Source: Octopus vulgaris (Eukaryota). From it: a DNA stretch of 64,000 nt. A program made the translations under genes and the position numbers. Of this stretch, positions 4,301 to 50,732 are shown in pieces (the stretch's first letter is position 1; every line of letters begins with the position of its first letter). Under the pieces are notes generated by a model, which was not told the origin of the DNA, did not search any database, and was given only the letters and a program-made list of their open reading frames with translations. The stretch spans positions 44,578,001 to 44,642,000 of the forward strand of contig OX597822.1 in assembly GCA_951406725.2 (NCBI GenBank), in the 5' to 3' direction.

Positions 4301-4440
4301 CACGACAGGCTTCTTTCAGTTTCCGTCCACCAAATCCTCTCACATTGTAGAGCACATTTGCCCAAAATACCACGCAGTGGGAATGAACCTGAAACCATGT
4401 GGTTGGTAAGGAACCTACTTACCACTCAGCCACTCCTGCG

Positions 4441-25228: not shown

Positions 25229-26518
<1,290 letters not shown>

Positions 26519-46932: not shown

Positions 46933-47689
46933 CTAGCAGTATCGCCCGGCGTTGCTCAGGTTTGTAAGGGAAATAACTAAAAAGCATTTTTAGAGAGTTA
47001 TAGCCAAAAAATAGAAAAAAAATGATGGTAAATTTTTTTGAGAGTTAAAACAGGTGGAGTTGCGTCCCCTAGACGGTCTGTGGTTTGGGTTTCTCATTCT
47101 CGACCCCATGTCGAATTTATCGATTTTTTCAGAACTGGGGGAACTTTTCAAAATTTTCGCTGCGTTAGTTTTGAATTATGACATTGGGCTATGTGTGTGT
47201 CAAGTTTCATCAGAATCGGTTGAAAGCCGTGGTCAGAGTGAGGGTACGAGAAAACAGACACACAGAAACACGCACAGACAAACTGCCGTTTATATAGAGA
47301 GAGATAGCAGTATCGCCCGGCGTTGCTCAGGTTTGTAAGGGAAATAACTATAAAGCATTTTTAGAGAGTTATAGCCAAAAAATAGCAAAAAAATGGAAAA
47401 AAAATGATGGTAAATTTTTTTTGAGAGTTAAAACAGGTGGAGTTGCGTCCCCTAGACGGTCTGTGGTTTGGGTTTCTCATTCTCGACCCCATGTCGAATT
47501 TATCGATTTTTTTTCAGAACTGGGGGAACTTTTCAAAATTTTCGCTGCGTTAGTTTTGAATTATGACATTGGGCTATGTGTGTGTCAAGTTTCATCAGAA
47601 TCGGTTGAAAGCCGTGGTCAGAGTGAGGGTACGAGAAAACAGACACACAGAAACACGCACAGACAAACTGCCGTTTATATAGAGAGAGA
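46933..47689 (-). mobile_element. Head-to-tail dimer of a non-autonomous Helitron (family H2)
   Basis: Units 46933-47304 and 47305-47689 are nearly identical; minus-strand 5' TCTCTCTCTATATAAACGG, 3' hairpin + CTAG, between A and T in (TA)n. Confidence 0.85.
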
Positions 47690-47733
47690 TATATATATAT
47701 ACACATACATATATATGGTAAATATATATATAT

Positions 47734-47853: not shown

Positions 47854-48061
47854 ATTACTTGTTTTAATCATTTGACGGCGGCCATGCTGGAGCACCACCA
47901 TTAGTCGAACAATTCAATCGCAGGACTTATTCTATAGGTCCTAGTTTTTTATTCTATCGAACTCTTTTGCCGAACCGGCCTGCATACACGCCAACATCGG
48001 TTGTCAAGCAATGTTGGGTGGACATACACAGACACATACACAAACACACACACACACACAT

Positions 48062-48100
<39 letters not shown>

Positions 48101-48219
48101 CGGCGGGCTTCTTTCAGTTTCCTCTTTGGTCGGCCCGAGGATATAGTAGAAAACACTCGCCCAAGTTTCCACTCAGTGGGACTGAACCCGGAACCATGTG
48201 GTTGGTAAGCAAGCTTCTT
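47854..48219 (-). mobile_element. SINE family A body; its head continues at 50657-50693 beyond the inserted element
   Basis: ..GAACCATGTGGTTGGTAAGCAAGCTTCTT | ACCACACAGCCACTTCTGCGCCT is contiguous in other copies (e.g. 63780-63820). Confidence 0.9.
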
Positions 48220-50656
48220 TATTTCATTACATTTGCCATGAAGGCAGTACATAGAGTAAAGTAGCTTTGCGGGCTGGACGAGGACATTAATGAAATGAAT
48301 GATAATGAAAGAAAGATGATAAGGATGGGAGAAGACAAAAAGCGCCCGCCGACTTCTGCTTCTCTAAAACATTGTTCTTTAAAACCAAACACAAAACGAG
48401 GTATTAAACCTCTTACAACTTTTACAACTTTTCAATTTTTGGACTTAACAGTCCATTACAAACAACAACATAGTTCAATAATTACATATAATATAAATAC
48501 AATACACAAAGCTCCTCCTCCCAGACCTGGCTTACACTTCCCTTAGGAATGCGCCAGCTCTAGGTCGGGCCCCTCAAGTCGTATCGAAACATGTCCTATC
48601 AAACGTAAAAAATACAATATCACTTCTCCCTTCCTCCTCTTTCCGGACCTCCAGTCAAATATCTAGCCGCCTGCAGAGCAGACCACGTTGACAGCCGGGG
48701 AGTTCAGAAAGAAAGCGAAGTGCCTATTATCCAATGTTTGTGTCACACAGTGCCACAATTTATGACTCATCCTCAAAATAACTTGTGCCCGCATCCTCTG
48801 CCATCCTCCACGCCTCTTCCAAAACCACACCGAGTTCCGTGTTAGCGTTGCCCGGGAACAAGCGATATTCTTCATTGAGCTCCTCCAGCTCAAACGTCAC
48901 GTCAAACGTCGTGGCCTCCACAGTTATCTGCGGAGGCCATTCGGGGTCCTGTGTGAAGGCTGAAGGTGCTCCCTTATGGTGCTTTTCCATCATCTTTTCA
49001 ATCTCACCGCCTCTATGGAAGAAGATCAATACATCGTCTTTCCCCGGGGGTAGGATATTCAATTCTTTCATTGGCGACACAGTTCCAGCCAACGGTATTT
49101 CTTCTCCTGTCGGTGGCACAACCCCAACCGACGTAGTTCCGGGACATTCCGGTACTATGTCACCGACTGCCGGCAACGTCCCGTTTCTCTTCCTCTTCCT
49201 CTTTTTTTCTTTCCAACTGAGGGAGGGTGCGTCTCCTCCGTGGCCGGAAGATTCGCCTTTCCCTCCTCATCCCTAGGATCCTTTGGTGAGCACCCATTGT
49301 TGCTCACCTTCTTCCTCTTTCGGCCCCTGTTTGAGGAGTCCTCCGCTTCTTCGGCCGTCTTCATTCCCTCTTCTACAGGGGTTTCACTTAACTGCTCCGG
49401 GATCTTATTTTGTTCCCGGGGACAGTTTGTCTTTATATGGCCGGACTCCAGGCACCGATGACACCTGGGGGAACGACCCTCAAGTATCACCGGGTACCTG
49501 CACCCGGCCATTTAAAAAGAATCTGGAAGAACCAGATTGGTTGATTGGGTCCAAAGGGTCAAAATTGCTTTTGACCCAACCCAAACAGCCGCAGGAAGAA
49601 CGTTCACATTAAGAAGCTTGGTCCCGCTGCCACCCAGACCCTGGCGGATAGCCTCCTCTATCCACTCGGGTTTTTATCCCGGGTGGCAGCCCGCAGATCC
49701 AAGCTTTCGTTAACCTCTTCCCACGATACGTTGGAAGATATAAAATTTCCTTACCCTCCAGGGGTTGACTAGCAAATTTGCGAGCCTCTTCAAGGGTGTC
49801 AAATAGCAACCACACTGTTGCATATCTGATACCCCTGGAAATAAATTTAATTGTTGGCAAATACTCTGCCAACTCCTTTTCAATTGCCTTCTTTTCGAAT
49901 AGAGCGATGGTGTCGAGTACCTTGGAGTAGGTTCTCAACACCACTGTCCTATCTTCACGGTCTTTTAACCACTTTTTAGGCGGTATAATCTCCCATGCCA
50001 AAATTTTGTCTTTTTTCATTGCCATGTTTCTTCTTTTTTTTTTTTAAATATATTCAAATAAAACTTTAAAAGCGAGAAGACAAAAAAGAAATCAAAAGAA
50101 AGTCCCAATAAACAAAAAGGAGAAAGTCAAATAAAGTTTAGAAGAAAGTCAATAGTTCAGGAACACAGCAAAAAAAATCTTCCGGCCATTCGCTACTCCC
50201 GGCCTAGGTTGAACCCGGAACGCCACAACTGGAACATGACTTCCACAAACATTGATATACAAATTGTTCAATCTTCGGAGGCAAAACACTCCCCCAAACA
50301 GCAGTTCTCACAATTATTAAAGTTCTTCAAAAGGCACAGTACAAGCAATAATTCTCATAATTAAGTGAGAAAAATATTCACTCAACATAAACTGAAGACG
50401 AATACGCCCCCAAACAAAAATTCTCACGATTCAGCGAGAAAAATTATTTGCCCCATGTCGGCAGAGCCAGAATTCTGAATCCAGTAGGAATTCCTGCCTG
50501 TACAAAAACAATTCTCAACAAAAATGCCCGCTGAACCCAAAAAACAGAATCTTACCTTACAATGGAGCTTCAAAGTTTTTCAATTCGAGACGGCTTCAAA
50601 AGCATGTCTCATCTCTTTGGTGCCGAACACCACAATTATTCGCACATGCGCAGTGG
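48220..50656 (-). mobile_element. ORF1-only non-LTR retroelement (L1/Tx1-like, HAL1-type layout) with 13-bp TSD
   Basis: TSD AAGCAAGCTTCTT at 48207-48219 and 50657-50669; about 630-bp 5' UTR, single gag-like ORF, about 540-bp 3' UTR ending in AATAAA at the junction; no RT or endonuclease motif seen. Confidence 0.85.
48760..50025 (-). pseudogene. Disrupted gag-like ORF1 (about 421 aa reconstructed) with CCHC zinc knuckle
   Basis: Three ORF-track pieces join with +1 in the A run at 49671-49675, a TAA at 49512-49514 and -1 in the A run at 49202-49208; LPDSFxMAGCRYPVILEGRSPR-CHRCLESGHIKTNC is the L1/Tx1 ORF1 knuckle context. Confidence 0.8.
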
Positions 50657-50732
50657 AAGCAAGCTTCTTACCACACAGCCACTTCTGCGCCTACACAGCC
50701 ACTATACACTATATATATGTGTGTGTGTGTGT

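Follow-up and report, generated by a model that had tools for sequence, protein, structure and literature searches.

The window, by which the whole 64,000-nt stretch of Octopus vulgaris DNA analysed here is meant, carries on its minus strand an insertion that divides a single SINE copy into two halves, one on each side. The perfect 13-nt direct repeat (48207–48219 and 50657–50669) and the 2437 nt that it encloses are as stated in the first-pass annotation, which had described a retroelement bracketed by a 13-bp target site duplication. The repeat stands, but the length of the duplication has to be revised. In the window copy it is 15 nt (48205–48219 and 50655–50669, 14/15 matching), and 5′-truncated relatives also show 15-nt duplications, with 15/15 matches in L040 and L058 and 14/15 in L036. 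Because the duplication is 15 nt and not 13, the element itself occupies 48220–50654.

ORF1 of the window copy starts at 50025 and stops at 48760. The single reading frame of about 421 codons proposed earlier holds as a net length of 421 codons but not as one open frame. The coding sequence is split over three stop-to-stop pieces (49609–50043, 49155–49511 and 48760–49266) by two frameshifts that compensate each other, both in A runs (near 49675 and near 49205), as seen against an intact natural copy, and reading from the start codon ends at a stop after 138 aa. With these two frameshifts, the copy is therefore disabled or mis-assembled at homopolymers. The single CCHC knuckle (49422–49463) and the basic patch that had been noted are both present, and there is indeed no poly(A) run at the 3′ end. 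The AATAAA hexamer described as closing the 3′ UTR is also there, but its final two letters belong to the duplicated target and not to the element. Similarity to the ORF2 of the autonomous partner described below is absent from the window element (tblastn, best E 0.63). The features of the locus, in the direction of the element, are the following.

50670–50691, minus: host SINE head, the 5′ part that precedes the insertion; full-length and truncated relatives have the same head before them
50655–50669, minus: 5′ copy of the 15-nt duplication, in the A-type form of the element subfamily
50026–50654, minus: 5′ UTR, 629 nt; the initial ~235 nt make up an exchangeable 5′ head, of which there are several
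50551–50557, minus: putative splice-donor-like motif (motif only), ~100 nt into the element
48760–50025, minus: ORF1, 421 codons net, with frameshifts near 49675 and 49205
49470–50025, minus: two predicted tandem RRM-like domains, approximate limits, from the structure model of sibling L136
49422–49463, minus: single CCHC zinc knuckle
48763–49065, minus: C-terminal domain, approximate limits; common to several ORF1-only families and under purifying selection
48220–48759, minus: 3′ UTR, 540 nt, probable fusion product
48647–48746, minus: decayed end of a coding region, similar to the C-terminal domain found in a sibling ORF1-only family (tblastn E 1.6e-4)
48534–48597, minus: probable remnant of a second, 5′-truncated sibling element captured downstream; six relatives, jackhmmer matches in L017 and L030
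48258–48268, minus: short motif complementary to the T-type target site; the window copy itself lies in an A-type site
48220–48246, minus: terminal motif shared with the autonomous partner (21/26 nt)
48205–48219, minus: 3′ duplicate of the target, 15 nt, of which 14/15 match the 5′ duplicate
47854–48204, minus: remainder of the host SINE (rest of the head, microsatellite and tail), end approximate

Just beyond the host SINE, another repeat at 46934–47691 consists of two near-identical tandem copies ~371–385 nt apart.

Family copies and the ORF1 protein

The genome contains many copies of this element. The DNA search, in which 40 of 3296 candidates were scored, gave at least 70 family matches; near-full-length copies among them stand at 87–95%. 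Exact matches to the 3′ junction numbered 136 (control, 0), a young ORF1-only subfamily is represented by 198 exact 3′ ends, and the protein search yielded 105 ORF1 matches. An intact ORF1 of 412–427 aa was present in 16 of the 30 loci fetched. The absence of ORF2 was examined in 55 copies, which were collected from the DNA and protein searches after five duplicates had been dropped. The end of ORF1 was recognisable in 53 of them, and none of these 53 showed ORF2 similarity within the next 1.2 kb; in 49, the family 3′ end was met 287–739 nt past the end of ORF1. Multiple copies thus share the same arrangement from ORF1 to the 3′ end and have their own duplications, and the family has been amplified as a unit, as had been supposed. 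The earlier reading would have been overturned by a 3′ UTR made of decayed ORF2; what the 3′ UTR contains is decayed ORF1 tails of sibling families. The element body is joined to several different 5′ heads among copies, and a 23-nt piece of the head seen in the window has 12 exact genomic matches.

The structure of the protein was modelled on the intact sibling L136, with a pLDDT of 86–97 over residues 11–200. The best Foldseek matches of this model are tandem-RRM proteins (E 9e-5 to 1e-3, low TM), so that the RRM-like N-terminus suggested at first is now predicted to be two tandem RRM-like domains. After these come the CCHC knuckle, a basic linker modelled with low confidence and a C-terminal domain. 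Pfam detects zf-CCHC only, below the cut-off in the ORF1 of L025 and above it in that of the partner. The C-terminal domain is common to several diverged ORF1-only families, and in one relative its model (pLDDT 78) predicts a small alpha/beta fold. Comparison with solved structures gave no Foldseek match at E 0.001 and only generic small alpha/beta folds, the best structural match having Z 4.8 and an rmsd of 3.5 over 74 aligned residues; among 59 representatives there was no match beyond residue 315. The domain, noted as unrecognised from the sequence, therefore has no specific fold match after structure prediction either. In the protein atlas, the neighbours of ORF1 are unnamed mollusc and arthropod CCHC clusters and ZCCHC3-like clusters at 0.89–0.92, which serve as leads only.

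In comparison with L136, dN/dS in the RRM/CCHC core is 0.09–0.20 in ten comparisons with dS above 0.07 and 0.23 in one with a dS of 0.06, and in the C-terminal domain it is 0.06–0.17 in three comparisons with dS above 0.1. The linker gives 0.6–1.15 in four of the five comparisons that have a value. As judged from these ratios, ORF1 of the family is kept by purifying selection, which acts on the core and the C-terminal domain.

Several relatives were met during the searches. A second ORF1-only family of ~1.47 kb occupies the same site (L079:3822–5287; also L029 and L077), and its ORF1 is 36% identical to the autonomous one. Other diverged ORF1 families, homologous in the C-terminal domain or in the core, are found in L018, L033, L041, L115, L127, L130, L137, L172 and L222–L226, and several of them are upstream members of tandems. 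L077 holds two copies of family B 3.9 kb apart, each adjoining RT-containing sequence of a different LINE, which is likely a local duplication. In Octopus sinensis, one ORF1 homolog (65% over 67% of the query) is annotated as an uncharacterised protein, and a second is fused to an integrase-domain model.

The SINE target and a same-site autonomous element

The ORF1-only family inserts at one fixed position and in one orientation in the head of an abundant SINE. When copies were collected with target-free patterns, the target followed the 3′ end in 30/30 young ORF1-only and 30/30 young autonomous copies, and beyond it 59 of these 60 go on with the body of the SINE, the remaining one with another element. 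In one set of copies with a 3′ end, 28 of 29 continue into the target, the other being a deleted junction still inside the SINE. Exact empty sites, counted as 29-mers, number 4,800 of the A type and 61,686 of the T type genome-wide. The subfamily of the window lies in A-type sites and the younger ones in T-type sites in 77 of 79 classifiable rows, a linkage counted by hand among 100 junction rows listed. The window itself has four further host-SINE heads, at 4409, 25241, 39891 and 63796; the two examined, at 25241 and 39891, are empty. A SINE whose head has been split may lose activity. The head looks tRNA-like only in A- and B-box-like motifs seen by eye against the usual consensus; ARAGORN found 0 tRNA genes in the window, and no tRNA was among the 10 Rfam matches of one empty copy. 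At G000:C1:80925493–80925801, four exact empty target matches with a spacing of 70 or 140 nt form tandem SINE heads. A 3′ UTR motif with complementarity to the target might be expected to change along with it, but in the subfamily of the window this does not hold, as 11 listed A-type-site rows carry the T-type complement; such a target-matched motif fits L033, L041 and L043, and L044 does not fit.

An autonomous partner with a common 3′ end, which the initial proposal called for, was found at the same site and with the same terminal motif. ORF2-bearing copies were reached through 3′ ends that have this motif, and a genome search with the partner gave at least 43 matches from the 40 scored of 6271 candidates; young partner copies account for 100 exact 3′ ends. 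An ORF2 frame of 1140–1150 aa is uninterrupted in 9 of 30 partner loci. The Pfam domains are Exo_endo_phos, RVT_1 and zf-RVT, and the closest solved structure to ORF2 is human L1 ORF2p (E 1e-66). The length is 5.43–5.45 kb in 16 of 18 extended copies, all 18 start at the same SINE position, and 28 of 30 partner loci lie at the target, with one tandem and one 3′-truncated copy in addition. Over 196 aa, the ORF1 of the partner and the ORF1-only protein have 29% identity, and the split between them is therefore old. The DNA similarity of the window element to the young partner is confined to the last ~26 nt (81%, 21/26). All young autonomous copies examined are in T-type sites, and a search for an A-type partner found ORF2 in only one of nine matches (L221, in an A-type site like that of the window). 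At G000:C9:2664566–2675469, three autonomous 3′ ends spaced by 5.42–5.45 kb likely form a head-to-tail array. Argonauta hians has an ORF2 homolog at 64%.

The partner belongs to the L1 group and likely to the Tx1 clade. This membership is suggested by its ORF1 type and its target specificity, in the light of the available text of PMC5203782 and PMC4494074. An ORF1 with RRM and CCHC is a variant of Type I and is consistent with Tx1 (PMC5203782, available text); the partner ORF1 is of this kind, its RRM part being taken from the predicted structure of the ORF1-only homolog. No Tx1-named sequence appeared among 120 listed partner homologs or 8 clusters looked up.

It is highly probable that the window holds a disabled copy of an ORF1-only non-LTR family that is fixed on a SINE-head position and likely mobilised in trans by the same-site 5.4-kb L1-group, likely Tx1-clade, element. 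That this is a family in its own right and not a truncated LINE is supported by the ORF2-free copies, by selection and by the autonomous partner on the same target. If an ordinary two-ORF LINE had given rise to the copy by a one-off deletion or by premature polyadenylation, the broken ORF of the window would fit, and internally deleted autonomous copies are known (L067 and L221). This origin nevertheless has next to no probability, as ORF2 is absent after ORF1 in 53/53 copies, ORF1 is only 29% identical to that of the young autonomous element, and purifying selection acts between ORF1-only lineages; no two-ORF element with an ORF1 more than 90% identical to that of the window was found in the 30 loci fetched of 105 matches. 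It may also be asked whether a single entry into a SINE was followed by the copying of SINE and element together by the SINE machinery, as the element subfamily is tightly linked to SINE subtype and the majority of copies have their full length and an attached SINE head. The mean pairwise divergence of 115 nt of downstream SINE, set against that of the last 240 nt of the element, was 5.7% vs. 0.37% in 18 autonomous copies, 8.0% vs. 1.7% in 13 young ORF1-only copies and 21.7% vs. 3.9% in 19 old copies, the last pair being inflated by SINE deletions. The SINE flanks are thus 5–15 times more diverged than the elements, and the insertions are therefore independent. The same test against hitch-hiking was used, with the same answer, in PMC4494074 (available text). 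In addition, 5′-truncated inserts of 30–500 nt keep the upstream SINE head and the 15-nt duplication, a private variant is common to both duplicate sides in L040 and in L061, one site is common to several unrelated 5′ heads and the autonomous family, and tandem stacks occur. Hitch-hiking is largely refuted by these observations and must be regarded as extremely unlikely.

There is somewhat more to be said for a different, unseen L1-group helper, with the 5.4-kb family merely on the same target: the 3′ similarity is short and imperfect, and A-type and T-type sites differ. Against it stand the terminal motif, insertion point and duplication length that are common to both elements, the mixed tandems L106 and L194, one 5′ head start common to autonomous and ORF1-only copies (L016 vs. 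L087) and the existence of older ORF2-bearing lineages (L069, L082 and L221). An unseen helper is consequently very unlikely, and the 5.4-kb partner is the likely helper of the ORF1-only family, whose use of its ORF2 in trans we infer from the features common to the two.

Comparison with known systems

ORF1-only LINEs and transposon-targeting Tx1 elements are each known already, separately, from the available text of the sources cited here. Non-autonomous LINEs in which ORF1 is present include HAL1 (L1 clade), HeT-A (Jockey) and Ag-Sponge (CR1) (PMC5786205, PMC5753468). The octopus element resembles them in having ORF1p only, without ORF2, in forming its own family and in needing an autonomous partner, which here is inferred; it comes from an L1/Tx1-like lineage, a clade outside the sources given in the available text of PMC5786205. 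Unlike these three, it has an ORF1 of the RRM and CCHC type and not Transposase_22, it combines the lack of a poly(A) tail with a sequence-specific target, and several of its families, 26–36% apart in protein, lie on one site. HAL1 has a 3′ poly(A) tail, whereas the octopus family copies have a single A before the duplication. The ORF1 of HAL1 in the strict sense is Transposase_22, while the octopus ORF1 gives zf-CCHC only in Pfam and tandem RRM-like domains with CCHC in the model. Mammalian L1 ORF1 is Transposase_22 of Type II (PMC5203782, available text).

Transposon-targeting Tx1 elements are a second point of reference. As described in the available part of PMC4494074, Xenopus Tx1 inserts in Tx1D, crocodilian Tx1-Mar in Mariner-N4_AMi, Tx1-9_AMi in Harbinger, and Tx1-8_Crp and Tx1-4_AMi in LTR elements, with SINEU elements as passengers. 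The octopus system likewise includes an L1-group LINE with a preferred position in another repeat, insertions in tandem that sandwich the duplication, and passengers on the same target; in contrast to those cases, the octopus target is a SINE head and the passengers are protein-coding ORF1-only elements. Its site specificity of 60/60 compares with 13–90% for SINEU families (PMC4494074). The Drosophila R1/R2 SIDEs, as far as covered by the available text of PMC3414825, are also non-autonomous, with a fixed site, a duplication of constant length (14 bp in R1) and 5′ junctions that are precise, but they are non-coding, target rDNA and use a ribozyme, whereas the octopus element is protein-coding and lies in a SINE. 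L1-Tx1 has been reported as expanded in coleoids (PMC8967140, available text). No SINE-targeting or cephalopod case was found in the open literature searched; an entry in Repbase, Dfam, a subscription journal or a supplement could already describe the family.

The octopus system joins ORF1-only parasitism with repeat-targeting by L1-group LINEs, on a target with more than 66,000 exact empty copies and with young intact members of both partners. Three questions become open to direct test in it: what maintains selection on ORF1 in an element that is not autonomous, how an AP endonuclease system with sequence specificity keeps up with a target that changes, and by what means L1-group elements close their 5′ junction. 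The young autonomous element may also be of use for site-specific integration, as it is almost completely specific for a dispersed repeat.

5′ junctions, tandems and splicing

The two sides of the duplication do not vary equally. Private changes in 19 older full-length copies number 2 in the 5′ duplicate, 23 in the 3′ duplicate and 2 shared (p 2e-5). The count refers to one set, the 19 best-scoring A-type-site copies, and to ungapped counting; T-type copies, one copy whose 3′ side is rearranged and those without one or the other junction were left out. The 12 nt of head just upstream vary by 11%, vs. 0.7% in the 5′ duplicate. L088, L136 and L021 carry their own subtype letters at the 5′ junction though the SINE is of the other subtype, and a one-base slip at this junction occurs in L100, L122 and L128. 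In the window, position 14 is of the element type in the 5′ duplicate and not in the 3′ duplicate. The 5′ duplicate thus follows the element and not the target, which suggests that 5′ joining is templated by an element RNA that starts inside the target. The simpler explanation would be a plain duplication at a staggered cut, with 5′ conservation caused by promoter constraint or by sampling. Two of the 19 copies (L018 and L023) have a private variant on both sides, as in a true duplication, the duplications of truncated copies are ordinary, and the asymmetry comes from a single sample. Against it, promoter selection does not act on dead copies, the 5′ duplicate is conserved next to a variable head, and young copies write their own letters into SINEs of the other subtype, with a one-base slip in some. 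We regard the plain staggered cut as rather unlikely, though it retains appreciably more weight than the other alternatives, and RNA templating is the reading followed below.

Under the mechanism proposed here, the element would make its own ORF1p, predicted to consist of two RRM-like domains, a CCHC knuckle and a small C-terminal domain, and this protein would coat its RNA. The ORF2p of the partner would bind the shared terminal motif, nick the SINE head and prime reverse transcription there. Transcription likely starts within the upstream copy of the target, and the cDNA, once complete, would anneal to the target at the cut and thereby write the element's own version of the 5′ duplicate. Precise full-length ends would result from this annealing. 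Each insertion would restore the site, so that elements could stack in tandem, and read-through of one tandem stack likely gave the family its present 3′ end.

Natural tandems are found in L018, L029, L106 and L194. In six relatives (L017, L018, L022, L024, L028 and L030), the 3′ UTR holds an older 3′ end and a target copy, after which a 5′-truncated piece of a sibling family follows. In the subfamily of the window, ~180 nt around the old internal junction are gone and remnants persist at 48534–48597. Since an old 3′ end and a target copy lie inside the 3′ UTR, the present unit is likely a read-through fusion of a tandem.

A broader history may be put forward only tentatively, and we hold it to be somewhat less probable than its negation. 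It would be a long-lived ORF1-only radiation on one SINE position, in which transcripts start in the target, insertions rewrite the 5′ landing pad, an expanding SINE subfamily is followed, 5′ heads are swapped and 3′ ends are captured from tandem neighbours, while a conserved promoter-proximal splice donor separates the ORF1 message from the unspliced template. Searches for spliced genomic copies gave 0 matches with two exon-end patterns, which are blind to a second exon starting with G. In four presumed-RNA runs, no splice joint was seen on a young ORF1-only copy among the contig rows listed, nor on the ORF1 region of the partner, for which the stretch used is free of the donor motif; the element did not appear in any run recorded as RNA. 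Of 15 5′ heads picked by hand, some of which are related to one another, 14 have a donor-like motif between +30 and +130, a count made without a shuffled control. By eye, splice-donor-like motifs are also visible at or near the ORF1 and ORF2 ends of the autonomous copies L069, L082, L104 and L106, and in L104 an acceptor-like pyrimidine tract with AG lies 5 nt before the start of the autonomous ORF1.
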